A stretch of DNA of 64,000 bases from an uncultured bacterium (GCA_963708045.1 OY970181.1:131740-195739), one strand, 5' to 3'; positions 13,108 through 62,404 are shown, numbered from the stretch's first letter. Notes: generated by a model from the letters alone, not told the origin. A program made the numbers and translations.

Positions 13108-16100
13108 TTAATTAGCTGTAATTGAAAGCACCATATTAACGGAATAGCTACCCACTGGCTGTTCAGCCGGAATTTTCTGGCTAATAGCTACGTCCCTGAG
13201 TGTCCAGTCGCCAACATTATTTGCGGCAGCGGATGCCGAAAGTAAAGTAATATTATTGGTCACGCCTTCACTAAATGCCGCCGCCCCACCCTTAGAAATA
13301 TTTGCCGTCGTGCAACCACTGCACCCACCAACAGCCAAAGTCGCGACCGAAGGATCAATCGTCATCTGGCCACCGAGCGAATCAGTATCCCCGCCGTCGG
13401 CACACCCCGCACTCGTTGAATCGTTGAAATCATAATTTACTGTTCCACCATTCCAATAGTCCGTTGGCGCTTGCGCCGCAAGCGTTAATGTCCAACCGCC
13501 GGCAACACCAGTGTTGTTTACATAGATCTGCTCTGATGATGAACCAAAACTGCCGGTAACATTTTGACAAGAAAAATTAAAATTTGTTGAGCTCATCGCC
13601 ATACTCGGATTAGCGACCGGCGCATAGCTTGCATTAACAATGTCGGCGGTTAAAGAGCCGCCCGACGGATTTAATTCGTCATTGTCCGCGTTCATCGCTG
13701 ACTCAATATTCGCCCAGGATGTTTCAGCATTATGAACGTGCCAAAATGTGAAGCTAACCGTTTGACCCGGAGCGACCGAAGACCAGGTTTTTTCAAATCC
13801 GGTCTGGTCGGCTGTCTGAGTTCCGTGAGAAGCCGTTATTTGAATTGGCCACTCAGCATAAGGAGCGGTTGTCCTACCCAAAAACGCCTCGACGGCAAAT
13901 ATTTGGTAATCGGGGAGATTGTTCTTATCCCAAATCATTCCCATATTGATGAATGTCACCTTATCGTAAGCCGTTTGCCAAAATTTTGACCAGCCAGAAG
14001 GAGAAACCCTTTGCTCCATGATGACGTCGTTAGAAGGGTCGTTGGCAAATCTACCAGCATCATTTGCTGCCCTGTCTGTTCCGTGCCACTGTTCACGTTC
14101 CCAGACCATCGGATATTTATGAGTAGAGCTGCCACCATTATAAAAATCATATGTATTCTTTATATATCTTTTGCCAGAATAATAATTCTGTGTTCTTGTC
14201 GCTGTGATACCATTGTCCAACTGCTGAGCCCAACCTCCAACAACTCCACTAACTGCCGTATTATCGGAGTGCTGAACAATCGTAAAACCGGTATTGCTTT
14301 CGGCCGTTATCCAACTAGCATTTTCATTCGGACTCCACTTTATATCATGTTGATATGGATTAGCTGAGCCCGAAGTATCAGCTCTTATTATGTCATCAAC
14401 ATGAACAGCGACTCTTTCCATACAGTCGGTAGACTGGTCGGCTCCTCCGCCAACTGGGTGAGCCCGAGATTCGGCTTGTAAACCAGCTTGCTCACATTCA
14501 TTTATTGAAGAACAAGCTAAATTGTTATCGGTTGTTGAAGTTGGTTTTGGATAAATAAATGTAGATAAATACTGATTAGCAATATACAAACCATTTGAAC
14601 CCCAGCGCTGGCCCATGTCAAACGTTTGAGTCCAGTTATATCTTGTCGCAAAAAGGTCGGTATCGGTATCAAAAGCGATATCAACATCCGTTGAAACCGT
14701 TCCTGTAGTAGCCATCTGCGGGAGTGAAGCGAATTGAATGTAAAGCGTATGCGAGGAAGTCTCCCACCACCATGCGTTGACGCCAGTGGACTGAGCCGAC
14801 CCCGGAGAGACAGATGCCCCGTTTACGGTTATAGCAAAATTAGTCGGAGAAGAAGTGATCGGATGAATTGGAACCGCCACGGCAATATTCGTACCTGTTC
14901 CGCTTTTCATTCCAAACCCGAAATCGCTTATGGTTGTATGCCAGTGGTCAGTTGACCAGATAGAATTAAAATCCGTATAATTAGCCGGGTTTTGAACCGC
15001 GTCCATTGAAGTTCTTTTAACAGTCATCACAATAGTAAAGGTACTTGCGCTGCTCGTATAATCTATAGAAGGAAAACCAGCGTTATTATCCAACTGCACA
15101 ACAACACTAAAGGAACCGTTATAAGTCTTTGGGTCATCACAACCCATACAAATATTGGAACCGGGATAAATAACCCCTTCAAAACGACTATTGCCGGCGT
15201 TCCATGTCATCGGAGTAGAAAATCCTTGCCCAGCGATCGTGGTGACTTGGGCGCGGGCGTAAGGATAATTAGCATAGGTCAAACCGCCGGTTAGTGTGCC
15301 GTAAACTGGAACCGCCCCCGCCCATCCGTCGGTCGTTTTGCCCAAAGAACTGGCGATGCCGGGTACCACGGGAGCCGGATTTAGAGCAACGGCAAAAGCA
15401 TGCTTGACTGTGGTACCGGTCGTTGAGCAGGTCGTATCAATATTTCCGGTCGCACCCGAACCAGTCCACGTCATACTATCAATCGTCCTTGCAAAATCGG
15501 AAGCAGTTATCCAGTAATCGTTATGCTCAACCCAATCAGTGGTAGGAACTGATGGTTTTGTAAAGTTACGAGTTGTATTACTTGAATAGAAGCTAGCGAA
15601 ATTTAAAAGCACCGAACCAGCGGCCGATACGTTCATACTGGCCGCCCTAACCGTTGTATTACTGGTAATATATTCGGTATTTGAATAAGTATCTATGGGG
15701 TTTGCGGTGTTAAAACCCCCACGGAAAGTTGCAACGGTTATGGCCGTACTTCCAGAAGAAGCAAAACTCCAAGTGTAAGAAGCCCCTTCTCCCGAAGCCA
15801 ATTTCCAATAAAGCATTTGATGATAGGTTGTAGAATACTGGTGCTGGGCCAACAAAGTCCACCCGGTTGGAACCGAATCAACCGCTCCGTTATTGTTGCG
15901 CATAATCAAAGTAAACATGATATCGTTGTTCGCCGTATTGGTCGGTTTGTTAACCACGGCGTTGAACGGGGTGGTTTGGGATGCGGCATTATAGTGAGCA
16001 ACGTTTATAAAAGAGGTTGCCGCCATAGCCTCATGAATTCTTAATTCTTCCGGCAAGTTGCGCAAAGAAGAAAAATTATCAACAACGTTCGGATCATTTT

Positions 16101-16251
16101 CATTTTGAGCAAGCCATAATTTATCAACGATGTTACGTGTGTTAATGTAGGAATCTATCGCCGAAGAAAACAAATAATAAGGAACATTGGAAAAAATGAC
16201 CCCGAAAATGACCAGCGACACCACTAAAAATTTAAGAATTCTTGTTTTCAT
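13108..16251 (-). CDS. large S/T/N-rich cell-surface protein with WxL-like C-terminal domain
   Basis: Signal peptide. C-terminal about 190 aa are homologous to the whole of ORF 18474-19154 and carry two W-T-L motifs (GGWTLTLAAQAP; GDWTLRDVAISQ). Confidence 0.6.
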   Translation of the reverse strand: MKTRILKFLVVSLVIFGVIFSNVPYYLFSSAIDSYINTRNIVDKLWLAQNENDPNVVDNFSSLRNLPEELRIHEAMAATSFINVAHYNAASQTTPFNAVVNKPTNTANNDIMFTLIMRNNNGAVDSVPTGWTLLAQHQYSTTYHQMLYWKLASGEGASYTWSFASSGSTAITVATFRGGFNTANPIDTYSNTEYITSNTTVRAASMNVSAAGSVLLNFASFYSSNTTRNFTKPSVPTTDWVEHNDYWITASDFARTIDSMTWTGSGATGNIDTTCSTTGTTVKHAFAVALNPAPVVPGIASSLGKTTDGWAGAVPVYGTLTGGLTYANYPYARAQVTTIAGQGFSTPMTWNAGNSRFEGVIYPGSNICMGCDDPKTYNGSFSVVVQLDNNAGFPSIDYTSSASTFTIVMTVKRTSMDAVQNPANYTDFNSIWSTDHWHTTISDFGFGMKSGTGTNIAVAVPIHPITSSPTNFAITVNGASVSPGSAQSTGVNAWWWETSSHTLYIQFASLPQMATTGTVSTDVDIAFDTDTDLFATRYNWTQTFDMGQRWGSNGLYIANQYLSTFIYPKPTSTTDNNLACSSINECEQAGLQAESRAHPVGGGADQSTDCMERVAVHVDDIIRADTSGSANPYQHDIKWSPNENASWITAESNTGFTIVQHSDNTAVSGVVGGWAQQLDNGITATRTQNYYSGKRYIKNTYDFYNGGSSTHKYPMVWEREQWHGTDRAANDAGRFANDPSNDVIMEQRVSPSGWSKFWQTAYDKVTFINMGMIWDKNNLPDYQIFAVEAFLGRTTAPYAEWPIQITASHGTQTADQTGFEKTWSSVAPGQTVSFTFWHVHNAETSWANIESAMNADNDELNPSGGSLTADIVNASYAPVANPSMAMSSTNFNFSCQNVTGSFGSSSEQIYVNNTGVAGGWTLTLAAQAPTDYWNGGTVNYDFNDSTSAGCADGGDTDSLGGQMTIDPSVATLAVGGCSGCTTANISKGGAAAFSEGVTNNITLLSASAAANNVGDWTLRDVAISQKIPAEQPVGSYSVNMVLSITAN

Positions 16252-16270
16252 TTCTTGTTTTCACGCTTAA

Positions 16271-17254
16271 TTATTTTTCGCGATATTCGCTTATATAATC
16301 AAGAGCCTGTTTAGATATTTTTTTCATTACTTCTTCTGCTCGTTCTTGGCTATAACCTTTGACCATAACCGTCAAAATATACGGCCTTTTTGGCAAGTAA
16401 ACAATGCCCGAGTCTAAATATATTCCCTTGTCAGTATCAATTCCGATTTTATGCGAGAATAAAATATCATTTAGCATCCCACTTTTGATATATTGGCCGA
16501 ATTCGGTTTCCGAAAGATATCCCAATAATTTTTGCGAGTTTTCTTCCGACAAATATGTTGAATTATAAAGCGCTCTAAATATAGCAGAATATCTTTTTGT
16601 ACCAATTTCTCCGGTATTGGAAATAAAATCCTTGAGTCCAATGTGTGTGTAAACATCTTCAATATCTTTAACTTCAAGATTTCTGGTCAAAATAAAATTT
16701 GCCGTATTGTCGGACTCCGTCAAATCTAACTTAACTAGATCTTCAATGGTAAACGTTGAGCCAATTGGTTCTTTGTATAAATTCCCAAACTTTTCATCTT
16801 TGTCGTTGGCTGTCAGCACTAAGCGATTATCCCATTTCCACTCCCCGCGTTCTATTTTTTTTGTGACTGCCATAGTCACGGGCACTTTAAGGAGACTAGC
16901 CGGCCAAAATTTCATATCATTATTGATTGAAATATTGGCGCCGGTATTCAGATATTCAAAATAAACAGACACTCCATCTTTTCCCTCTAACTTGTTTAGT
17001 TCGTCCCTGAGCGGTTGGATATTGATTATAAGATCATCTTGATTGATAAGTTTCCGGGCGGGATTAAGCAATTTATATTCCCCAACGATATCCGCGACGC
17101 GACCATTTTTTCCGACGACACTTAAAAAAACAGGCGCTAGGAGCGAGGTAATTAAAACCGCCGCAAGCGTTGATATATAAACCCATTTTACGTCTACGTT
17201 TTTTCTATTTTGAATTTTTTGCTTCCAATTCATATTTTTGTTAGCGACTGACAA
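16271..17254 (-). CDS. serine hydrolase of the class-A beta-lactamase / penicillin-binding fold
   Basis: N-terminal TM, then SxxK (ASLLK), SDN (ESDNTAN) and KxG-like (HKIG) motifs. Confidence 0.55.
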   Translation of the reverse strand: MSVANKNMNWKQKIQNRKNVDVKWVYISTLAAVLITSLLAPVFLSVVGKNGRVADIVGEYKLLNPARKLINQDDLIINIQPLRDELNKLEGKDGVSVYFEYLNTGANISINNDMKFWPASLLKVPVTMAVTKKIERGEWKWDNRLVLTANDKDEKFGNLYKEPIGSTFTIEDLVKLDLTESDNTANFILTRNLEVKDIEDVYTHIGLKDFISNTGEIGTKRYSAIFRALYNSTYLSEENSQKLLGYLSETEFGQYIKSGMLNDILFSHKIGIDTDKGIYLDSGIVYLPKRPYILTVMVKGYSQERAEEVMKKISKQALDYISEYREK

Positions 17255-17323
17255 AAAGCAAAAACCCGAAAAAAATCCGGGTTTTTGCGGAACAAAAAAG
17301 TTGAGAAAAATTTCTTAAGACCA

Positions 17324-18463
17324 CTATCGCAAAGGCGGAGTTTTAATTTTTTCACCAGGTTTGACAACATAGGGAGGTTTTAATCCGTTCACCTTAGCAA
17401 GCAGTTTCCAAGAAATAGCGAATCGCTTTGCCAGGGAATTAATATCATCTCCTGCCCCAACCACCTGCTCTACCCATTTTTCCTGAATCCATTTTTTATT
17501 GCGACGATTTTTAACGCAGAGAATGACGACGGCAACCAAAAGCAAGACGACCGCGATTTCTGTTGCCAGGCCGCCCGGGGTTGGCGCGCTCCAAAACCAA
17601 ATTGTCGGGCCAGTAAGCGTTGTTAAATCTTTGCCGCTTTGCACACCAACGCTAGCTTCTGAATTTTTGTCGTAGTCAACAACAAAAGCCGAGCGATACC
17701 ATCCACCAAAGAATGGTTTTTTTATCTCAAAGTTCCAATCAGACGTTTCGCCGCGCATTATTGGAAACTGACCGCCGTACTGTTTATACGGCAAGCCGAA
17801 AAAATACGAAACAGCGACTTTGATATTGGCGTCAATGGAAACATTGCCAGTGTTCTTAACTTGCGGATGAAGGACAGGAACGCCTTTTTCTAAAGTTAAT
17901 GTAAAGCCAGCCAATTCAAGCTTGCGAACAATTTCGCCTGGGATTGTAACGGCCACGCGCAAACCCGTTCGTACCGAAAGAAGCGCACCAACTTGTCCCG
18001 CTTGTTTTACTTTTTTCTCTTGAATATTTATACAACCATCGTGCTCGCCAACCGCCGCGCTTTTGGGCGCGCTGATTGTAAAAGGCACGACTTCGCTCGT
18101 ACCCGGCTCTAGCATTACTTCGCTCTTTGCCAAATTGATCCAGGCGCCAATGTCCAGTTTGTCTTCGGAAAATTGCTTACAAGCAAAAGCGCCGCCGGTT
18201 GAAGGCGTAGAGTCGGTCGCATAAACCATTAAGGTCTTTGTTTCGGCCGAATTATTAACAACAACCACTCCTTCGCTAACCTTAGCGCCCGGTTCCAGAG
18301 TTTGGATAAAAATTGATTCGGTTCGCGGATTATCAGTCCGCGGATATGCCGGACGCCCGCCAAAACCACCATATTCAATGGCTTTGGCCGCGGACAACGG
18401 AATCACGACTGACGATAAAAATACAACGACTGTAATTAGTCTTGCGATTCCTAAAAATTTCAT
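17324..18463 (-). CDS. cell-surface protein (DUF916/DUF3324-like architecture) with TM anchor and C-terminal LysM motif
   Basis: Signal peptide, large ectodomain, TM helix EIAVVLLLVAVVILCV, then GAGDDINSLAKRFAISWKLLAKVNGL...VKPGEKIKTP, which matches the LysM consensus. Confidence 0.5.
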   Translation of the reverse strand: MKFLGIARLITVVVFLSSVVIPLSAAKAIEYGGFGGRPAYPRTDNPRTESIFIQTLEPGAKVSEGVVVVNNSAETKTLMVYATDSTPSTGGAFACKQFSEDKLDIGAWINLAKSEVMLEPGTSEVVPFTISAPKSAAVGEHDGCINIQEKKVKQAGQVGALLSVRTGLRVAVTIPGEIVRKLELAGFTLTLEKGVPVLHPQVKNTGNVSIDANIKVAVSYFFGLPYKQYGGQFPIMRGETSDWNFEIKKPFFGGWYRSAFVVDYDKNSEASVGVQSGKDLTTLTGPTIWFWSAPTPGGLATEIAVVLLLVAVVILCVKNRRNKKWIQEKWVEQVVGAGDDINSLAKRFAISWKLLAKVNGLKPPYVVKPGEKIKTPPLR

Positions 18464-25545: not shown

Positions 25546-27774
25546 TCAGTAACCGGGTACGCTAATGAATGTTGCTGCCGTGAATCTAACCGCTGCCTGC
25601 CAATCCCCTCCTCCAACCACCAAATTAATCCGGTCAGGCGTCATACCACTATTGACCATGACCGAGAGATATTCACTGCCACTACTATTACAAGAGATTG
25701 GATAGTACGCCATCTCTGTTCCTGCGGTGATCTCCAGATAAGGTTGATTATAGCAAGTGATTGACGAGGTGGCGTAGTCAAACCATACCATCAACCATGC
25801 ACGGGTAAGAAACACGACTTGCAGACTATCAAGCAATTCCGTTCCAGTCACCGAAGAAGCTTGCATCCGCGGATCTTTCGGACGAGCGCCGATCAGACTT
25901 GGACAACCGTAAGTGCCAGGTGTTGCATCGCAGATCGTGTATGAACCGAAACAATTTCCGCCTGAACACGTGCCGTTGTTATTGCACGCCGAATTGCAGG
26001 CACCGCAACTGGCCGGATCGGTCATTAAGCTCTTACAACCGTTTGTGCAAGCGGTTTGCGTCGGATCTGCACAGATACAACTTGTCGTTGTCCCAGAAGT
26101 GATGCAGTTGCTACCGGCCGGGCAGGCGTTCCCGCACGACCCACAATTGCTATTACTGCTCTTTGTGTCCGTGCAGACACCGCAATCGGTGAGGCCACCG
26201 ATACACTTGCAGCTGCCAGAAACGCAGGCTTGGTCTCCTCGGCACGGCTTGCCACAGCCGCCACAGTTGGCGGTATCAACTTTCGTATCGTGGCATTGAT
26301 TATCGTTGCACTTTGTTGTTCCACCTTCGCAGACAATTCCACAAAGGCTGTTTGAGCAGATTGTCCCGTTTGGACACGGTTTGTTGCAGCCGCCGCAGTG
26401 GGCGGTGCTATTTTTAGTGTCCGCGCAGACGCCGCAATCAGTGAGGCCACCGATGCACTCGCAACTGCCGGAAACACAAGCTTGATCTGTGCGACATATC
26501 TTGCCACAAACGCCACAGTTGGCGCTTTCGGCTTGCAGGTTGTGACACTGCTCATCGCTACACTTCGTCGTTCCGGGTCCACAAACGGTTTGACACGAGA
26601 TACCGGACATTGGGTGATTTGGGTCGTAGACACAGGTCTTTCCCGGAGCGCACGTTTTTCCGCACTCCCCGCAGTTTGCGGGGTCGTGAAGGTAGTCCAC
26701 GCACGCATTTCCGCACAGCATCCTTGCAATCGGACATTGACATGTGCCGGCCGTGCATGATTGCGCGGCGAGACAAGCGTTTCCGCAAGTCCCACAATGC
26801 GTGTTGCTAGTCTGCGTATTAACGCAGGCGCCGCCACAGTCAACGAGGCCGTTTGCGCAGCCGCAAACGCCTGCGACACAATCTTCGTCCGCGCGGCAAG
26901 AGGTACTACACCCCCCGCAAAAACGCGGATCGTTTTTTGTGTCACGATAATTGCCATCGCAGAGAATTATGCCGTCGCCTGGAAGCGACTCGCAAACCCC
27001 CGCCGAGCAGTATTCGTTTAGAGCGCAAGTGCGGCCACAGGAGCCGCAGTGCGCCGGATTAAAGCGCACATCAATGCACGCTTCCGAACAAAGCAACAAA
27101 CTTCCCGGACAAGACGGCGCGTCGGGTAAAATAGATACATCGATAGAGGCATCTACGGCCACGAACTGAGCATCGGGAGGAGCGACGATTTGCGCGTCAG
27201 GAACTAAAATTGCGACTTCGGGTGCCGTGTCTTTTGGTTGAATAATGCCGACCTCGGTTTGGGAAATCAGCACCGTGTCACGAGACAAAACAACATCGGC
27301 AATTGCCGACGCGCCGTCGGTAACGACATCAATCACTATTTTTACGTCTTCCGACAACACCGCGTCGCGAGCAAGTGGTGTTTCTCTTCCCGCTTCAGGC
27401 ATCATTGCGACCGGTGAGTCACTCACGATGCCGGCGTCTTTTGTTGCTGCATCATTTTGAGCCACGGAAGCGTCGGGGATGATAGCCGCGTCGGTGTTGC
27501 AAGACAAACCGCTTAGACTGAAAATCCCGTTCACGCAGGTATACCTCGTGCAGTTGATGACGAAGGTTGCGCCCGAACCATAGGTGCTCGTTGAACCATT
27601 ATTAACGTTGGTCAAAACACAAACTTTGGCATCGGATAGCGCGTCTTTTGGCACAACCGGTGTTGCGACGGCCGCGTCAGTTAGCTTTGCTTTTCCACTA
27701 CCTCCGCACGCCCCGCCCAAGATTAGGCAAGCCGCGCTACTAACGAAAAACGAACAGATAATTCTTTGCCTCAT
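25546..27774 (-). CDS. secreted cysteine-rich repeat (lipo)protein
   Basis: Signal with lipobox-like LILGGAC. At least 10 tandem about 40-aa repeats of pattern C-x-G-G-L-T-D-C-G-V-C-x-D-T-K-x-x-x-x-H/N-C-G-x-C-G-x-x-C. SD GAAAGAGG before the 27774 ATG. Confidence 0.6.
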   Translation of the reverse strand: MRQRIICSFFVSSAACLILGGACGGSGKAKLTDAAVATPVVPKDALSDAKVCVLTNVNNGSTSTYGSGATFVINCTRYTCVNGIFSLSGLSCNTDAAIIPDASVAQNDAATKDAGIVSDSPVAMMPEAGRETPLARDAVLSEDVKIVIDVVTDGASAIADVVLSRDTVLISQTEVGIIQPKDTAPEVAILVPDAQIVAPPDAQFVAVDASIDVSILPDAPSCPGSLLLCSEACIDVRFNPAHCGSCGRTCALNEYCSAGVCESLPGDGIILCDGNYRDTKNDPRFCGGCSTSCRADEDCVAGVCGCANGLVDCGGACVNTQTSNTHCGTCGNACLAAQSCTAGTCQCPIARMLCGNACVDYLHDPANCGECGKTCAPGKTCVYDPNHPMSGISCQTVCGPGTTKCSDEQCHNLQAESANCGVCGKICRTDQACVSGSCECIGGLTDCGVCADTKNSTAHCGGCNKPCPNGTICSNSLCGIVCEGGTTKCNDNQCHDTKVDTANCGGCGKPCRGDQACVSGSCKCIGGLTDCGVCTDTKSSNSNCGSCGNACPAGSNCITSGTTTSCICADPTQTACTNGCKSLMTDPASCGACNSACNNNGTCSGGNCFGSYTICDATPGTYGCPSLIGARPKDPRMQASSVTGTELLDSLQVVFLTRAWLMVWFDYATSSITCYNQPYLEITAGTEMAYYPISCNSSGSEYLSVMVNSGMTPDRINLVVGGGDWQAAVRFTAATFISVPGY

Positions 27775-27957
27775 GCTACTACCTCTTTCTTTGTCAGAGA
27801 ACATTTATTTGGCTATTTTTAGCCAAATCAAAAACACGTCTTTCACGGCTTAAACATAGACCCGCACCTTAAGGATGTCAAGCAACCAAAAAAGAAATTT
27901 AAAATTCTTAACTATTATTAGCAACTGTGTTAAGGTAGCGGCCGAGAGGAGAAAACC

Positions 27958-28434
27958 ATGCCCACAATTGCAATTATGCGTCATGGGGTGGCTTTAGACC
28001 TCCCCTACCGCGGCCTAACTTCTGGAAGCTGCCGACAAACAATCGCGCTTACGGAAGCGATTGCAGAAATTTTTAACCAAGAGCCGCTCATTATTTGCGC
28101 TGAGGAACGCGAGGCAAAAGAAACTGCCAACCTCGTCGCCGTAATGTTTAAGACGACCTTTGTCGTCAACCGCGCTCTTTCAGAAAATGGCCGCCCCGAG
28201 GAAATGGACGAACTTATCTGTTCATTACTTAAGAAGACGCGGCTGGTTATTATCGTCACGCACCGAAAACGGACAACCCCGTTTTTAAAATCGCTGATGA
28301 AAATATCCGGGAAACCATTGCACAAGAAGCCGACCTTTGTGCCAAAGCTCTTTGAAATTGTTCCTAGGATCATCTTGGTTAATACCGAGACAATGGAAAC
28401 AAATACCATCCGCGCCAAAAGGCACGGCAAATAA
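27958..28434 (+). CDS. histidine phosphatase family protein (SixA-like)
   Basis: IAIMRHGVA matches the RHG catalytic motif of the phosphoglycerate-mutase/SixA superfamily. 158 aa. Confidence 0.5.
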   Translation: MPTIAIMRHGVALDLPYRGLTSGSCRQTIALTEAIAEIFNQEPLIICAEEREAKETANLVAVMFKTTFVVNRALSENGRPEEMDELICSLLKKTRLVIIVTHRKRTTPFLKSLMKISGKPLHKKPTFVPKLFEIVPRIILVNTETMETNTIRAKRHGK

Positions 28435-52369: not shown

Positions 52370-52935
52370 GATAGAGCGAACGAACTCCCCCTACCCCCTC
52401 TTTTGCAAAGAGTGGGCAAAGACTGGTTAAATCTCACAAGGCACCATTATAAAAAGAGGGGGATAAAATCGCGAAAAAATCTTAGTCCTCCCTTTGGTAA
52501 AAGGGAGGGTAGGGAGAGTTCTTAACGTATCTATGACGATAATGTTTTAAAAATACCGATGGAGTTTTGCAAACGATCTTTAAAACTGTGCAAAAATTGA
52601 TGCGGCGTTCGTAACCCCTCCTACCTCCCCTTACCTCCGACGTTTTGACCTCTTAAAATAATTTGGAGGTCGGAGTCCGATCAACATCGGACCTAAGGGG
52701 AGGAAAAGATTTGTTGTACGTTTTATCAGATTTTTTCTATACCCATAGTTTTAACCTTCTCTTTCGGCTCGAGACTGATCTCCGCCAAAGGCGGATCTAC
52801 CCTCGGGTATGACACCTTTTGCGTAAGGGCAAAAGATCTCATGGCTACGTATTTTAGATGAAATTTCATTCAAACATTAAAGCATCTTTCCCCTCCCTTA
52901 AGGTAAGGGAGGGGAAAGTGGGTTATGAGTGTATG
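52370..52935. repeat. Family-C composite hairpin repeat element
   Basis: gaacgaactccccctaccccctcttttgcaaagagtgggcaaagactgg, cttagtcctccctttggtaaaagggagggtagggagag and revcomp-of-34560 blocks. Confidence 0.55.
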
Positions 52936-55469: not shown

Positions 55470-55859
55470 ATGTCCCACTCCTTCCCGCCACAGCCCATTA
55501 AAAACAACCAACTCTTCGCCTCACACCGAGCGAAGAGTGTTGTTTATATCGTTGGTTTTTTTATTTTGGTCGTGGCGATAATTGTTTGGGAAATAATCCG
55601 CGTGACCGCGCCGCCGCTGCTTATTATCAACAATCCGCCGGACAATCTGTTGTCCAACCAAGCGACGATTGTCGTTTCCGGCCGCGCCGCGCCCAATTCA
55701 ACCGTTGTCATTAACGACGAATTTACCGCGACCGATCTTTCGGGAAACTTTAACGAAACTTTGGACTTGCGCACCGGACTAAATGTCATTACTATTAGTG
55801 CGTCCAAACGCTTTGCCAAACCGAATGTTATATATAGGAGGGTGGTGGTGGCGAAATAA
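55470..55859 (+). CDS. hypothetical membrane-anchored protein
   Basis: N-terminal TM helix VVYIVGFFILVVAIIVW. 129 aa. Confidence 0.45.
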   Translation: MSHSFPPQPIKNNQLFASHRAKSVVYIVGFFILVVAIIVWEIIRVTAPPLLIINNPPDNLLSNQATIVVSGRAAPNSTVVINDEFTATDLSGNFNETLDLRTGLNVITISASKRFAKPNVIYRRVVVAK

Positions 55860-55952: not shown

Positions 55953-57026
55953 ATGGCCAAAAAAGATGTGAATCCTCGCTTTGCCGCCGCGATGGAGGCG
56001 ATGAAGCAAATTAAGGAAAAATTCGGCGAAGGCTCCATAATGAAGTTTGGCGAAGCCGGACATATGAAGGTGGACAGCATTCCCTCGGGTTGCGCGTCCT
56101 TAGACATTGCCCTTGGTTGCGGCGGTTTTCCGCGCGGCCGCGTGGTTGAAGTCTTTGGACCGGAAGCTTCGGGAAAAACCACTCTTGCTCAACACGTGGT
56201 TGCCGAAATTCAGCGCCAAGGCGGCATTGCCGCTTTCGTTGACGCCGAACACGCTCTTGACCCCGAGTATGCCCGCAAAATTGGCGTTAAAGTTGACGAG
56301 CTGCTTATTTCGCAACCAGACAATGGTGAACAAGCTTTGGACATTGTGGAAACACTTGTCCGCTCCAATGCTGTTGACGTGATTGTTGTTGACTCGGTCG
56401 CGGCGCTCGTCCCCAAAGCGGAAATTGAAGGCGATATGGGCGATCAGCATATGGGCTTGCAAGCGCGACTGATGTCACAAGCGCTTCGCAAACTAACGCC
56501 GGTTATTTCTTCATCGCACACCTGCCTTATTTTCATTAACCAAACGCGAATGAAGATCGGCGTCTTCTTTGGCAACCCCGAAACAACGACCGGCGGCAAT
56601 GCCCTAAAGTTTTACGCTTCGGTGCGCATAGAAATTCGCCGCGCCGCGCAACTTAAGAAGGATGAGCGCGTTATCGGCAACCGTGTAAAAGTTAAGATCG
56701 TCAAAAACAAAGTCGCGCCACCTTTCCGCAACACGGAGTTTGATATTATGTACAACGAAGGCATTTCCGTGACCGGCGACCTTGTTGACACAGCCACGCT
56801 TTGGGAAATCGTCAAAAAAAGTGGTAACTCGTATTCCTACGGCGAAGTTAGACTCGGCGTTGGCCGCGAAGCCAGCAAACTTTTCCTAAGAGAACATCCA
56901 GAAGTTTTTGAAGACATTAGAAAAGACCTCTTCGCCGCCGTCGCCGCCAAAGAAGTTGAAAACAACAACGTCGGCGGTTCGTCGGTTGCCGAAGCGCCAG
57001 CGAGCGAAGAAAATAAGGAGGCATAA
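55953..57026 (+). CDS. recA: recombinase RecA
   Basis: [11 protein letters not shown] Walker A, ...[14 protein letters not shown]..., L2 loop region. 357 aa. Confidence 0.95.
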
Positions 57027-57136
57027 CACCCCTCACCCGGCCTTCGGCCACCCTCTCCCACACTTGGGCGAGGGTTTTCCGACCAAACAAAAATCACCCC
57101 GATGACTATCGGGGTGATTTTTGTTTTAGATAATTT

Positions 57137-60100
57137 TTAGTGAACGACGCAAACAATGTCTGGATCTGCGCCGGTTCTATAAAAGGCTCCAGCGGACAAT
57201 CCGCCAGTTATTGCAGCCGCGTTGTTCGCGTAAACAGGAAGACCGATGACCTGCAATTTACTAGTCGGTACCGCTGTTCCAATGCCGACATTACCATTGT
57301 ACAAAATAGTCATTGCTCTTGCGAGCACTCCATCTTCTAAAGGAGTAGTATCAAAGAATAAACTTGCTCCTGTGTGGGTGACTGAATTATCTGTAATAGT
57401 ACTGCCAATTCTGGCGCTATTAACTAAGGTTGTAGCATTGCCAGCACCACTTAGATAGTTTGTGGCTCTAAATAAAATGCCTCCACCATGACCTCCATAA
57501 GGCAAAGTATTGGCCGCGGCTGAAATTGTCAGAATGTCGGAATAACTCGTTCTAACTCCGGTTTCCAAACGATAAACTTCTCCTTTGGTTCCTGGCGTCG
57601 CCGTCCCAATGCCAACGTTGCCGCTTGATCCTGACTGTAACAATACCGATGAGCCGTCAATTTTGACCGGATTAGAATAGCCGGCGGTTACAATTTGCAT
57701 AGCGGCGTTAACCACGGTGCCGTTGTATACCCATTTTATAGAACCGACACCGCCACCGCCCTGGCCGACGTAAATAGCACTATCAGCAGCCGTATCGCCA
57801 ACCACGATTGCCGTATTAGCCGTTAAAGCGCCTAGATCAGAACCAACAACCAGCTTTTCATTCGGCGTCGTCGTCCCAATGCCAACATTACCATCTGACT
57901 GCATTGTCATTACGGTCACATCGGCGAGTTGGGCAGCGCTGTCGGCATTTTTTAAATTTATGTCAAACCTAGTTTTAGGAGCGGTAGCAACACCAGCCGA
58001 ATATCTTCCAATCGTAAAATCAACTATTTCAGGCCATACAAGACCATCTATATTTGGCCTTCCTAATCGTTGAACAATTTGTTGACCAACTGCATATTGT
58101 GTACTTGTTCCCGAAACCGTTTCTAGCTTCGCCCCCGGACTCGACGTCCCAATACCAACATTGCCGTTGGATAATATGGACATAGCGTTTGTCCAAGAAA
58201 TAGTATTTCCAGCCGTTCCACTGGGCGCAACGAGAAAAATTAATCCATCACTAGATTTGATCATCGCCGCATAATTGCTTACTGCGTAGGTTTGAGTATC
58301 ACCGGTACCCTGATAAGCGTTCCAACCCATCCAAGCATCACCATTAGAACGACTTACGCCCATCGTAAGTGGGCGATTTGCCCCTGAACCAAAATACAAC
58401 TCAAAACTTTTTCCTGGAGCCCCCGCCCCTTCAACAATAGATAGTTTACTTCCTGGCGACGTTGTTCCAATACCAACGTTGCCGGTATTGTTACTATATA
58501 TATTGTTTCCTGACGCAGTCCAATAGTTTGTGCCACCAGCAGCCGGCCACGAAGTTTTACAGTTACCGGCAATACACAAACTTGTGCCATTTACTTCGCC
58601 GTTCACATCAAGCAAATAGCTTGGCGTGGCCGTACCAATGCCCAAGCGGCCGATGGAGGTAAGACGCATAACTTCTCCAACCACACCAGCATTTCTCATT
58701 TGAAAGACTAAGTCACCAGCAGTTGATCCTACGGTATGACTGGTAAAAACTGCGGAGATGAAAGATGTTCCTACTATACTACCCGCAGTATCACCGGTGG
58801 AAAAACGCAGAGAGGCGCCATTGTTAACGGTGGCGTTGGGATTAGTAATTCTAATAGCGGGATTAGGAACAGTGGTCGCGGTATAGGTTGTTGCGTCGGA
58901 CGCCGCTACGTCAAGTAAGCTGTTTGGGACGGTTGTCCCAATGCCGACATATCCATTTGTCGCTAATTTCATTATCATCGTTGTACCACGAACAAAGAAC
59001 ATATTGCCGTTGGTCGTGTCTTCGGTGCGTAAGATAAGGTCGTTTGCAAGCGACCCCGTTACATATTGGCCAACACTCGTTGCCAAACCAAGAAAAACTT
59101 TAGCAACGCCGGCATTTTTTATATTTAGCGCTGGCGCGTTTGGCCCATCAATACTCATACCGTCAGCAATCGTGGTTGTATAGACATGGAGTTTGCTGGC
59201 CGGCGCCGAGGTTCCAATGCCGACGTTCGTTCCGTCATCAGCAACCTGCGAATCGCCAAGCGTCGCACCGTCGGGCGTAAACTTTGGCAAATAATTAAGC
59301 GTTCCCGAGCCAGAAATACTGCCACCGCTTCCGCTAGCAAATAAACATACGCGCCCAATATTGCTGGCGGAATAACTACTGGTGGTCCAAGCACCGCTTG
59401 TTGCCAAAGTATATATATAGCCGTCGTGAATAAACGACCCGCTCGGACTTGACCAATATGCTTTACCATCAACCGATCTTCCAGCTGTATAACCAGTTGA
59501 ACAACTGCTGGTGTTGGAATATACAATCGGAGCGCTATTTGACAAACACACACGGCCAGCAGTACCGGTACCGGCGGTGGTCCAGGTACCATCCGTCGCC
59601 AAAGTATACGAATTACCGTCGTGAATAAACGACCCGCTCGGACTTGACCAATACGCTTTACCATCAGTTGGTCTTCCGGCGGTATAACCAGCAGGACAAC
59701 TACTTGTTCCCGAGTAGATGATTGAAATTGGCGCGGAACCACTGCCCGACCCACCGCTTGGATTAGTGCCATTATAAGAGTGTGCCGAATGAGCTGCATA
59801 ACTAACAGTAACAAATTCATCTTGTCCAGCGACGACCGACATCCAATAAACTTGTCCCGAATTTGGATTATCCGGCGACGTAGCGATTCTCCAAGTTATA
59901 CCATCGGTTGATTCAATTATTGCCGGCGCGTTATATGCGGCAACTATCACAAACTTTCCATTTCCATAAGTTACATTATACCCAGAAGCGGCTGTGGCGC
60001 TTGTTCGTGAAGTCCAAGTAATACCATTAGGCGAAGTCATGATTTGCGTGCCCGCGCTAACTGCAACAAAAAGACCATTACCATAAGCAACTGAGATCCA

Positions 60101-61399
60101 ACCAGCAACAGGACTACTTCGCGCTGTCCAAGTAATACCATCTGGTGAAGTCATTACTTGATTAGCCGAACTACCCTGATCCTGTGCAACCGCCACAAAA
60201 GTTCCATTGCCATAGGCAACCGAACTCCAAATATTAGTATTTGCCGGTGCGCGACTGGTCCAAGTAACACCATCGGGCGAAGTCATAACTTGTTCGGCTG
60301 TTGGATAGGCGGCATTACCTTTGCCAACGGTAACAAAAAGACCATTGCCATATGTAACCCCACGCCAAAATTGATTATTCCAAGAACCAGACGTTCTTTT
60401 TGTCCAATTTACACCATCGCTTGAGGTAAGGGCGAGAAAGGCAGACGTGGAATTAACTTGATCTCCAACCGCAACAAAGGTGCTATTGCCAAACGCTATT
60501 GAATACAAACCGCTGTATTGATTTGAGTCGCCGCTAACCGTACGCATAGTCCAACTAACCCCACCAATAGAGGTAGCTATTTTATATCGTTTAGTACCTA
60601 TGGTTGCATTGTCTGTGCCAACGGCGACATATACTCCATTGCCGTATGATACGCTAGTCCATCTATCATCACCATCATTGGTATATGGACCACTGGGAAG
60701 ATCGTCGCCAAATTCCCAATCTCCCCATGTGCTTGAAGTTGAACCACTGCCACCGGTACAATTTGTCCCATCAGCAAGACAGACCTTGACGCCGTTTTGC
60801 GTAATATCACCGCTAGCATTTAGCGTACCCGTGATATCCAATTTATATGCTGGATTAGTGTTACCAATACCGATGTTGCCGATAGTATGACCAGAGTAAT
60901 CACCATCTATTCTCATTCTTTCAACTCCATTTGACGAGAATCTAATTGCAGACCTTCCATCATCGCCCCTAGCAGAACCAGACATAAATATAGAACCTCC
61001 TGTAGCTGAGCCAGGAGCTTCTCCATAAAGCTCAAGCCCTCCACCCGTTCCAAACAAAGTTCCCCAACGTTGATTAATTGCATCAAAAGCAAACCCAGCC
61101 GTACCAGATTTAACTTCTAATTTGTATGTAGGCGTCGTCGTTCCAATACCGACACTCCCGCCAAAAATTCCGCCGCCGCTAAGCCAAAAACTTCCCGTTT
61201 GCGCGGCTGTGTTTTGGTTCCAAATCGGTGGGGCAATATTATTGTTCGGCGGCGATGCTGATGGCTCTGACCAAGTTTGCGCCAAAACTTTACTGCCAAA
61301 AATTCCTAGACCGGCGATTATTAAAAGACAAAATAAGCCGACACCGGCGCGAAAACGGAAATACTTGAATCGCTTTTCCGCTTTTTTAAAATTTACCAT
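57137..61399 (-). CDS. giant (1420 aa) cell-surface protein with Asp-box (BNR) beta-propeller repeats and tail-fibre-like GNVGIGTT repeats
   Basis: N-terminal anchor/signal. Six or seven repeats S-x-D-G-x-T-W-T-x-R...YGNG-x-FVAV. Repeated GNVGIGTTSPGAKL / GNVGIGTATPGTKGEV / GNVGIGTAVPTSKLQV motifs. Internal about 150-bp tandem DNA repeat near 59270-59580. Confidence 0.65.
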   Translation of the reverse strand: MVNFKKAEKRFKYFRFRAGVGLFCLLIIAGLGIFGSKVLAQTWSEPSASPPNNNIAPPIWNQNTAAQTGSFWLSGGGIFGGSVGIGTTTPTYKLEVKSGTAGFAFDAINQRWGTLFGTGGGLELYGEAPGSATGGSIFMSGSARGDDGRSAIRFSSNGVERMRIDGDYSGHTIGNIGIGNTNPAYKLDITGTLNASGDITQNGVKVCLADGTNCTGGSGSTSSTWGDWEFGDDLPSGPYTNDGDDRWTSVSYGNGVYVAVGTDNATIGTKRYKIATSIGGVSWTMRTVSGDSNQYSGLYSIAFGNSTFVAVGDQVNSTSAFLALTSSDGVNWTKRTSGSWNNQFWRGVTYGNGLFVTVGKGNAAYPTAEQVMTSPDGVTWTSRAPANTNIWSSVAYGNGTFVAVAQDQGSSANQVMTSPDGITWTARSSPVAGWISVAYGNGLFVAVSAGTQIMTSPNGITWTSRTSATAASGYNVTYGNGKFVIVAAYNAPAIIESTDGITWRIATSPDNPNSGQVYWMSVVAGQDEFVTVSYAAHSAHSYNGTNPSGGSGSGSAPISIIYSGTSSCPAGYTAGRPTDGKAYWSSPSGSFIHDGNSYTLATDGTWTTAGTGTAGRVCLSNSAPIVYSNTSSCSTGYTAGRSVDGKAYWSSPSGSFIHDGYIYTLATSGAWTTSSYSASNIGRVCLFASGSGGSISGSGTLNYLPKFTPDGATLGDSQVADDGTNVGIGTSAPASKLHVYTTTIADGMSIDGPNAPALNIKNAGVAKVFLGLATSVGQYVTGSLANDLILRTEDTTNGNMFFVRGTTMIMKLATNGYVGIGTTVPNSLLDVAASDATTYTATTVPNPAIRITNPNATVNNGASLRFSTGDTAGSIVGTSFISAVFTSHTVGSTAGDLVFQMRNAGVVGEVMRLTSIGRLGIGTATPSYLLDVNGEVNGTSLCIAGNCKTSWPAAGGTNYWTASGNNIYSNNTGNVGIGTTSPGSKLSIVEGAGAPGKSFELYFGSGANRPLTMGVSRSNGDAWMGWNAYQGTGDTQTYAVSNYAAMIKSSDGLIFLVAPSGTAGNTISWTNAMSILSNGNVGIGTSSPGAKLETVSGTSTQYAVGQQIVQRLGRPNIDGLVWPEIVDFTIGRYSAGVATAPKTRFDINLKNADSAAQLADVTVMTMQSDGNVGIGTTTPNEKLVVGSDLGALTANTAIVVGDTAADSAIYVGQGGGGVGSIKWVYNGTVVNAAMQIVTAGYSNPVKIDGSSVLLQSGSSGNVGIGTATPGTKGEVYRLETGVRTSYSDILTISAAANTLPYGGHGGGILFRATNYLSGAGNATTLVNSARIGSTITDNSVTHTGASLFFDTTPLEDGVLARAMTILYNGNVGIGTAVPTSKLQVIGLPVYANNAAAITGGLSAGAFYRTGADPDIVCVVH

Positions 61400-61477
61400 A
61401 TATTTAAAATGACTAATTTATACCTAGTTTGTATTCTATTATAGAACAAGCGATATTTTATGTAAAACGAGAAGGAG

Positions 61478-61760
61478 TGTACCGAGAAACGAACTCCCCC
61501 TACCCCCTCTTTTGCAAAGAGTGGGCTAAGACTGACTACAGATCATAAGTCTGCGATTATACAAAGAGAGACGATAAAAGGCGCGAAAAATCTTAGTCCT
61601 CCCTTTGGTAAAAGGGAGGGTAGGGAGAGTTCTGTTTTATTACGTTAGAACGAAACGAACTCCCCCTACCCCCTCTTTTGCAAAGAGTGGGCTAAGACTG
61701 GTTACAGATCATAAGCACATCATTGCGCAAAGAGGGGGCGAATATTTTTGTACATTTTAT
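61478..61760. repeat. Family-C composite hairpin repeat element (two tandem units)
   Basis: Two units starting cgaaacgaactccccctaccccctcttttgcaaagagtgggctaagactg at about 61480 and about 61652. Confidence 0.55.
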
Positions 61761-61816
61761 GAAAAGACAGATAATGGTAGTATTAAGCAGGGTTAATTAA
61801 CAAACCTTTTGTATAT

Positions 61817-62404
61817 ATGCACAGGAAATTTCCTTTTGCGCTTATTGTCATCATTATTATTTCTAGTTCTTTTTTAACCAGCTTTGCGATTGTCGCCCAT
61901 CTCTATAGCAAGCCACAGAAGACGAACAAGCTGGGGACCGATTATATGTATGGCTATTCAGCCGGCACCAACGATGCCAAAAAACTACTCGCCGCGAGCG
62001 GAATAATTATTCCTTCAATTTCTCCAGAAATTACTTCTCTTTCGGGAACAATCAAATCTATTAGCGGGGACATGTTAGTAATGACCGTTCTTGGGGACGC
62101 ACCGACCGACTCTCTTAATACTCAAGAATTAAACGAGCGTGTTGTTTTGGTTTCTGAGCAAACAAAAATTATTTCCAGAACCTCAAAAACTACTGCCGAG
62201 ACAGCGGCCGAGTTTAAGGAACTGCAAAAAAGCACAAAAGCGGGGAAGCCACTGCCACCACCAAGTCCTTTTAAAGAAACTGCTGTTAAAATTTCCGCTC
62301 TTAGCGTCGGAACAACGATAACCGTAACCGCGAACGAAAATATTAAAAATGCCAACACGATAAACGCAACGGAAATAACTTTTACGAGCGTTGGGACGAA
62401 ATAA
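61817..62404 (+). CDS. hypothetical secreted protein
   Basis: Signal/anchor FALIVIIIISSSFLTSFAIVA. 195 aa. Terminator hairpin downstream. Confidence 0.45.
   Translation: MHRKFPFALIVIIIISSSFLTSFAIVAHLYSKPQKTNKLGTDYMYGYSAGTNDAKKLLAASGIIIPSISPEITSLSGTIKSISGDMLVMTVLGDAPTDSLNTQELNERVVLVSEQTKIISRTSKTTAETAAEFKELQKSTKAGKPLPPPSPFKETAVKISALSVGTTITVTANENIKNANTINATEITFTSVGTK

Follow-up and report, generated by a model that had tools for sequence, protein, structure and literature searches.

A stretch of 64,000 nucleotides (nt) from an uncultured bacterium (GCA_963708045.1 OY970181.1:131740-195739), called the window below, contains on its minus strand an open reading frame (ORF) at 57137..61399 that begins with ATG and encodes a protein of 1420 amino acids (aa), here termed the fibre protein. 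It combines a phage-tail-fibre-like shaft with a β-propeller and two copies of a small Cys-bracketed domain, and it is probably a cell-surface adhesin, neither a sialidase nor the product of an actively expanding repeat gene. The reading that we favour, with some reserve, is that of a Sec-exported, homotrimeric surface adhesin of a Patescibacteria cell, phage-tail-fibre-like and similar to the mosaic adhesive trimer (MAT) fibres of Bdellovibrio bacteriovorus; three other readings, taken up below, rank lower. An ORF scan bore out the original prediction, made from the sequence of the window, that this is its largest gene (rpoC, with 1298 aa, and rpoB, with 1090 aa, come next), and the role suggested there, that of a surface protein for recognition of a host or partner, is plausible. 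From the N-terminus, the protein consists of a leader, an N-terminal module, a Gly/Ser linker, the propeller, a second Gly/Ser linker, two mini-domains, a third Gly/Ser linker, a phage-type shaft with eight units and a C-terminal peptide, located as follows:

61280..61399, minus strand: Sec-type signal peptide or membrane anchor, aa 1-40, read from the translation
60755..61279, minus strand: N-terminal fibre segment, aa 41-215, from the motif scan and homologues
59792..60718, minus strand: β-propeller, aa 228-536, with Gly/Ser linkers on both sides, from the structure model, Foldseek and homologues
59531..59731, minus strand: mini-domain copy 1, aa 557-623, C568...C617, 201 nt and 67 aa, from pairwise alignment
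59339..59530, minus strand: mini-domain copy 2, aa 624-687, 192 nt and 64 aa, from pairwise alignment
57242..59284, minus strand: C-terminal fibre shaft, aa 706-1386, from PHROG, homologues, a profile against structures and collinearity with the phage fibre P0187
57140..57241, minus strand: C-terminal peptide, aa 1387-1420, 34 aa, from comparison with IMG/VR

The MAT fibres, with which Bdellovibrio recognises its prey, include Bd2133, Bd1334, Bd2439 and Bd3182; their segments are intertwined trimeric β-helices whose edges are closed by capping loops of the pattern V-G-G/N-pi-x-x-P-x-x-x-L, and the T5 L-shaped fibre and the K1F endosialidase, an S74-family protein, share this fold (Caulton et al., 2024; PMC10769870). 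A regular-expression scan of the translation found the capping-loop motif G-x-[VIL]-G-I-G-[TN]-x-x-P-x-x-[KL]-L ten times, twice in the N-terminal part (aa 83, 176) and eight times in the C-terminal part (aa 726, 818, 919, 975, 1081, 1172, 1262, 1371), and the GNVGIGT repeats that had been noted in both parts are indeed present. The shaft opens with KFTxxGxxLGxSxxxDxGxNVGIGT, a typical start, its eight capping-loop modules are ~56-109 aa long, and a Cys pair, CIAGNC, lies at aa 942-947. It matches two PHROG tail-fibre families (phrog_18345, 2.3e-22; phrog_9942, 5.2e-19), and a single-sequence search matched PDB entry 8OJN (Bd3182) exactly at the GNVGIGT motifs. A profile built from aa 706-1420 and 24 homologues matched the structures of Bd2133 (8OND, E 1.3e-28), Bd1334 (8OML, E 1.7e-14), Bd2439 (8OL4, E 7.7e-11), Bd3182 (8OJN, E 1.3e-9) and MyRF (7DC3, E 1.4e-5). 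At E <= 1e-5 the shaft has 1418 homologues with 25-35% identity, and most of these finish with a conserved C-terminal domain or with S74 or Peptidase_G2 chaperone domains; the fibre protein has none of these endings, and no Pfam match to Peptidase_S74 or Peptidase_G2. Weak matches to annotated cyanophage tail fibres were obtained by tblastn. The stretch aa 706-1420 can be aligned over its full length with aa 329-932 of P0187 (29% identity, E 2e-37), a protein without signal peptide whose contig carries a large terminase (phrog_6681, 2.4e-165). The tail-fibre-like character first read from the sequence is thus upheld by the PHROG families, the profile matches to MAT and MyRF structures and the collinear phage fibre, and the capping-loop modules would be expected to form a trimeric β-helix shaft.

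All 21 Bdellovibrio MATs have a signal peptide followed by a conserved ~130-aa β-rich N-terminal domain (PMC10769870). Like the MATs, the fibre protein is cell-encoded, begins with a putative signal peptide, is at least ~1000 aa long and is phage-related; it repeats β-helix modules with the same capping-loop motif (profile E 1e-28 to 1e-9 against four crystal structures) and it is a mosaic of a conserved N-terminal end and swapped distal parts. The absence of an S74 chaperone is shared with the 'NS74' subgroup of MATs. The two differ in their hosts, a Patescibacteria cell as against a Gram-negative predator, and in their distal ends: MAT tips are globular (β-sandwich, tumour necrosis factor-like or C-type lectin), whereas the fibre protein ends in the 34-aa phage-type peptide and carries its candidate binding domains, the propeller and the two mini-domains, inside the shaft after module 2. 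The words 'propeller' and 'Patescibacteria' do not occur in the main or supplementary text of PMC10769870, and no description of a propeller-in-shaft fibre was found in the literature searched. Phage tail fibres with capping-loop β-helix shafts, of the T5 pb1 and K1F stalk type, are represented here by P0187, with which the fibre protein shares a collinear shaft and terminus and the same PHROG families, and by IMG/VR ORFs, with which it shares the C-terminal peptide. Unlike it, the phage proteins start with a part for attachment to the virion and lack a signal peptide, and none of the 19 viral ORFs examined contains a propeller; the fibre gene, for its part, is chromosomal and has no phage neighbours. 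Export and trimerisation are expected because of the homology with MAT and phage fibres, and adhesion is the most likely function because both of these serve it.

Only 34 residues, LPVYANNAAAITGGLSAGAFYRTGADPDIVCVVH, follow the last capping loop. Counted with that loop, they share 63-83% identity with the very C-terminal ends of at least 25 viral ORFs of IMG/VR (loci L084-L111), which are 250-1027 aa long and otherwise diverse; nearly all of these ORFs end in ...VCVVH-stop, the others in a close variant. The consensus of the peptide is GLPVYANNAAA(I/V)xGGLxAGxFYRTGxDPDxVCVVH-stop, one capping loop always precedes it, and neither Pfam nor PHROG models cover it. It stands where an S74 chaperone or a tip domain would be. 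Since the peptide is conserved while the parts upstream of it vary, it most likely has a structural role, as a folding or trimerisation cap, and does not determine receptor specificity.

At the opposite end, the leader combines an n-region rich in Lys and Arg with the hydrophobic stretch AGVGLFCLLIIAGLGIFG, and a signal peptidase would be predicted to cleave it at a VLA|Q site. The N-terminal module that follows contains a motif of the SWSEPxxxPPxxN...AQTGxFWLSG type, two capping-loop modules and the Cys hairpin CLADGTNC. A search with the N-terminal 225 aa retrieved only nine homologues, none of them named. The best, P0241 (388 aa), is 33% identical over 96% of the segment and has the leader, the SWSEP...AQTGxFWLSG motif and the Cys hairpin in common with the fibre protein, the C-terminal parts being different; its gene sits among cellular genes and adjoins T2SSF and N_methyl pilin genes (L082). 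Hairpins of the form Cys-x(4-6)-Cys occur twice in the fibre protein, as CLADGTNC (aa 207-214, ~60758-60781) and CIAGNC (aa 942-947, ~58559-58576). Both come after a segment of the form LD(V/I)xGxxNxS, GGLCIAGDCKTxWS is a consensus feature of the shaft-family alignment, and such a hairpin is presumably a disulfide-stapled turn between fibre modules.

The region between the first two linkers has six hairpin motifs [ST]x[DNG]GxxW (aa 277, 326, 374, 418, 456, 497) and six motifs [YF]GN[GS]x[FY]VxV (aa 252-478), with a degenerate seventh at ~aa 519. Its blades are ~42-50 aa long and follow the pattern W-x-S-V-x-Y-G-N-G-x-F-V-A-V ... S-x-D-G-x-T-W-T; at the DNA level, the families D1-D3 and D5-D7 of a repeat finder mirror both periodicities of the protein. 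An AlphaFold2 (AF2) model of aa 222-700, run with a 23-sequence alignment, has a predicted local distance difference test score (pLDDT) mostly >90 over aa ~244-536 and contains seven long and six short β-hairpins. Six full four-stranded blades and a closing seventh are confidently predicted from this model, the last hairpin closing the seventh, probably with a contribution from the N-terminal strand. Foldseek against the PDB returned propellers only, with probability 1.0: the best template modelling (TM) scores, 0.69-0.72, were those of the seven-bladed Ycf48, and six-bladed Kelch domains reached ~0.6. In a comparison of a profile of the region with PDB sequences, Ycf48 was the sole match, a weak one (E 0.023). 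Among BFVD models the propeller matches phage and giant-virus proteins at <=39% identity and TM scores up to 0.81, and one of these, from Caudovirales, carries an intramolecular-chaperone (S74) domain.

The family to which this propeller belongs is another matter. Its 119 sequence relatives (45-50% identity) are for the most part giant surface proteins in which many propellers stand in tandem, type IX secretion system (T9SS) proteins of Bacteroidota among them; their blades are near-identical, with the consensus RVMTSPDGITWTxRTxxxxNxWxSVTYGNGLFVAV, and they match the Pfam families EPTP (up to 3e-22) and DUF6242 (up to 6e-13). The copy in the fibre protein shares the blade consensus of these propellers and has Ycf48 as its nearest solved structure, but it scores 13.7-16.9 bits against EPTP, below the cutoff of 21, and it is a single propeller within a fibre as against a long tandem array. 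No Pfam family of the BNR, BNR_2, Sialidase or glycoside-hydrolase kind matches the fibre protein at E <= 1, and NCBIfam gave no BNR- or sialidase-type match; BNR, BNR_2, Sialidase and PSII_BNR are absent from the 25 most often matched of the 70 families that 23 propeller segments hit, and a FRIP-type motif, [FYW]R[IV]P, occurs nowhere in the 1420 aa. The canonical Asp-box, S-x-D-x-G-x-T-W, lies between strands 3 and 4 of a blade; the six hairpins here, S/T-x-D/N/G-G-x-x-W, sit at the strand 3-4 position and are one residue shorter. By sequence, the propeller appears to belong to the EPTP/DUF6242-type repeat family, outside the Pfam BNR and sialidase families. Of the BNR/Asp-box, sialidase-like propeller described in the original prediction, the propeller fold and the six hairpin motifs therefore stand, and 'Asp-box-like propeller' is fair as to shape and motif; the assignment to a sialidase-like or BNR family is not supported, the tie to BNR-type proteins being the weak Ycf48 match (E 0.023; TM 0.72). 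Domain searches, which were to show BNR or tail-fibre homology, thus matched the tail fibre and not BNR.

These results bear on an enzymatic reading, in which the propeller would be a catalytic, sialidase-like glycoside hydrolase borne on a trimeric stalk, on the model of the K1F/K1E endosialidases, and the fibre a depolymerase that cuts the polysaccharide of the partner. The tailspike endosialidase endoNF has a propeller and a small β-domain, and the order of propeller, small β-domain and trimeric stalk recurs in the fibre protein. The K1F stalk is structurally similar to the MAT β-helix (PMC10769870). Foldseek does list endo-neuraminidase NF (3gvk, E 1e-8), but with a root-mean-square deviation of 27.9 A, which is no real superposition. 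The hairpins are Asp-box-like and the labels of some BFVD matches read BNR or xyloglucan hydrolase, yet the fibre protein lacks any sialidase, BNR or glycoside-hydrolase match, the FRIP motif and the S74 domain, and its propeller is of the EPTP/DUF6242 type; the nearest solved propeller, Ycf48, is of BNR-like type but not an enzyme. Near-identical blade copies are typical for multivalent binding propellers, unlike enzymes with blade-specific catalytic residues, and the blades of this propeller family are near-identical copies of one consensus. A depolymerase is accordingly considered unlikely.

The mini-domains that follow the propeller are ~65 aa long, each with two bracketing cysteines (SSC...GRVCL) that may clamp it by a disulfide. 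The duplication was found with a DNA repeat finder and pairwise alignment; overall, identity between the copies is 76% for the DNA and 73% for the protein, and a 132-nt ungapped core reaches 82%. The tandem duplication first reported, near-perfect, ~150 bp and at 59270-59580, exists, but its period is ~195-200 bp, its position 59339-59731 and its identity 76-82%. The quoted peptide copies (CPAGYTAGR...RVCL) are present in the translation; Tandem Repeats Finder, the check proposed for the duplication, reported nothing over 56500-62000, even at a minimum score of 30. Over an ungapped core of 138 nt, 29 positions (21%) distinguish the copies; 16 of these are third-codon positions, and this bias indicates purifying selection. 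On these differences, the duplication is regarded as old and selected and not as a recent expansion, so that 'repeat-expanding' is not supported. Hypermutation of the diversity-generating retroelement type was also considered and rejected: the mismatches of the full alignment are mostly transitions of all kinds and are not specific to adenine. An exhaustive HMMER search of 1.84 billion representative proteins found no homologue of the mini-domain beyond the fibre protein itself, and neither a relaxed local search nor Pfam with a limit of E <= 10 yielded a credible match.

Taken together as an adhesin, the parts could work as follows. The signal or anchor and the lineage-specific N-terminal module would keep the protein attached to the cell surface. 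The shaft, tens of nanometres long, would be built of ten intertwined triangular β-helix modules, each shut by a GNVGIGTxxPxxKL capping loop, and would be broken after module 2 by the flexible Gly/Ser linkers. At the break each chain would loop out into a ~7-bladed, internally symmetric propeller and two disulfide-clamped ~65-aa mini-domains, and the trimer would thus carry, part-way along the fibre, a collar of three propellers and six mini-domains. The 34-aa phage-type peptide would end the fibre and act as its folding or trimerisation cap. The fibre would adhere to a glycan or protein exposed on a partner or host cell, with the propeller and mini-domains, and possibly clefts of the β-helix, as binding elements.

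Several points weigh against this reading. MATs and phage fibres usually bind via their tips, and the fibre protein has no distal tip domain, only 34 aa lying past the last capping loop. We know of no characterised ligand for the propeller family, and the mini-domain is an orphan for which AF2 predicts short β-strands, an all-β fold, at low confidence (pLDDT 27-71). For the shaft, AF2 run on the monomer gave a poor model (pLDDT 52, predicted TM score 0.26), which was excluded from the fold search. The comparison with MATs rests on the C-terminal chains in the PDB, the ~130-aa N-terminal domain of MATs lying outside it, and the lifestyle of the source organism is assumed from its phylum alone.

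A bolder version, which we regard as tentative and rather doubtful, is that a phage tail fibre has been domesticated as the host-recognition organelle of an obligate episymbiont-type member of the Patescibacteria, with a mid-shaft collar of three multivalent lectin-like propellers and six disulfide-clamped mini-domains, in place of a terminal tip, as the binding part and the C-terminal peptide as a chaperone-free trimerisation cap. If so, the fibre would be a pilus-independent candidate for host recognition in the Candidate Phyla Radiation (CPR), and a trimeric fibre would here be armed in a new manner. According to PMC12206443, it is largely unknown how the ultra-small Patescibacteria locate their hosts and attach to them, and type IV pili are proposed as a candidate. 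A Patescibacteria genome with a fibre of the MAT and phage-tail-fibre kind therefore offers a concrete host-binding candidate; here a known design appears in a new lineage with its parts newly arranged, and current understanding is not overturned. Also of note are the recurring propeller-in-shaft architecture, the unmodelled phage-fibre peptide (GLPVYANNAAA...VCVVH) and the orphan ~65-aa Cys-bracketed domain.

The combination of fibre and propeller is not unique to this gene, because capping-loop modules alternate with propellers of ~6 Asp-box-like motifs each in other metagenomic proteins (P0044, P0064, P0096, P0026 and P0046). P0044 has four propellers, and P0064 is a Parcubacteria 'tail fiber domain-containing protein' with S74. 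Another protein with propellers, fibre modules and S74, P0095 (MDP1688979.1), starts with the type IV pilin-like leader GFTLLE (…NNGFTLLEAILY…), and some members of this architecture may thus be pilus-borne. This raises a further reading, in which the fibre protein would be an accessory of the envelope or of a pilus, a structural or spacing element such as an S-layer-associated or type IV pilus-associated adhesin, and not a free-standing fibre. P0241, which has the same N-terminal module, adjoins pilin genes, and type IV pili are, according to PMC12206443, the only host-binding device documented in Patescibacteria. The leader of the fibre protein is, however, of the Sec type and not a prepilin leader, its immediate flanks contain no pilus genes, and every homology detected is with modules of fibres or adhesins, which makes this accessory role improbable.

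The MAT-like adhesin reading also agrees with the chromosomal neighbourhood. The flanking genes are rpoB, rpoC, ftsK, a gene for a small Glucodextran_B-like protein, recA, which is convergent with the fibre gene, a gene for a hypothetical membrane protein, which is divergent from it, efp and an epmA-like gene. The 80 best relatives of the RecA protein, from GTDB species genomes, are Patescibacteria at 64-75% identity, among them Kerfeld-, Uhr-, Magasanik- and Parcubacteria, and the submitter labels on some of these records differ ('uncultured Gammaproteobacteria' or 'bacterium'). None of these 80 has a fibre gene within ~8 kb of recA, implying that at this site it is an accessory gene. Its surroundings within the 64-kb window include neither a fibre paralogue nor a phage gene, and the GC content of the gene is about that of the surrounding DNA. 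An origin within a prophage was rejected because the flanks are housekeeping genes. The fibre gene is thus chromosomal, accessory and apparently a self-standing transcription unit of a CPR bacterium, outside any prophage. Scans of genome contigs and of metagenome contigs found no close relative of the full protein, and Pfam and NCBIfam gave essentially no matches to its whole 1420 aa.

That the gene is a stranded one, a tail-fibre gene that remained from a degraded prophage or was gained by transfer and that has no cellular function of its own, would fit a C-terminal half that is collinear with a phage fibre and ends in a phage-specific peptide, and the lack of a counterpart beside recA in the 80 relatives, but it is very improbable given flanks (rpoBC, ftsK, recA, efp) without phage genes, a native composition, an intact ORF of 1420 aa behind a strong promoter-like site, a Sec-type signal and N-terminal module that are common to the cellular secreted P0241 and absent from P0187, and mini-domain copies whose third-codon-biased differences point to purifying selection.

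The promoter-like site lies ~39 nt upstream of the ATG and, as a near-consensus match, is a putative promoter of the fibre gene:

61438..61466, minus strand: sigma-70-like promoter TTTACA-17-TATAAT, 11/12 consensus matches

Upstream of this promoter there is a direct repeat of 83 nt (61486-61568 and 61652-61734, 87% identity), the 49-nt core of which has a third copy ~9 kb away at 52377-52425 (chance expectation 0). One copy of the repeat and an adjoining inverted partial copy form a ~108-nt hairpin at 61590-61699 (dG -57 kcal/mol, z -8). The repeat looks like an element of the repetitive extragenic palindrome (REP) or miniature inverted-repeat transposable element (MITE) type; Rfam gave only sub-threshold microRNA-like matches at the locus, on account of the long hairpin. 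Between ftsK and recA, a 129-aa ORF on the plus strand (55470-55859) encodes a product with a hydrophobic segment at its N-terminus and a domain resembling Glucodextran_B (Pfam E 1e-7), which may be another small envelope or secreted protein. Further off, the GC content of the window, ~0.46, falls to 0.395 at 16001-18000 and rises to 0.531 at 26001-28000, the latter excursion coinciding with a 752-aa ORF at 25546-27804.

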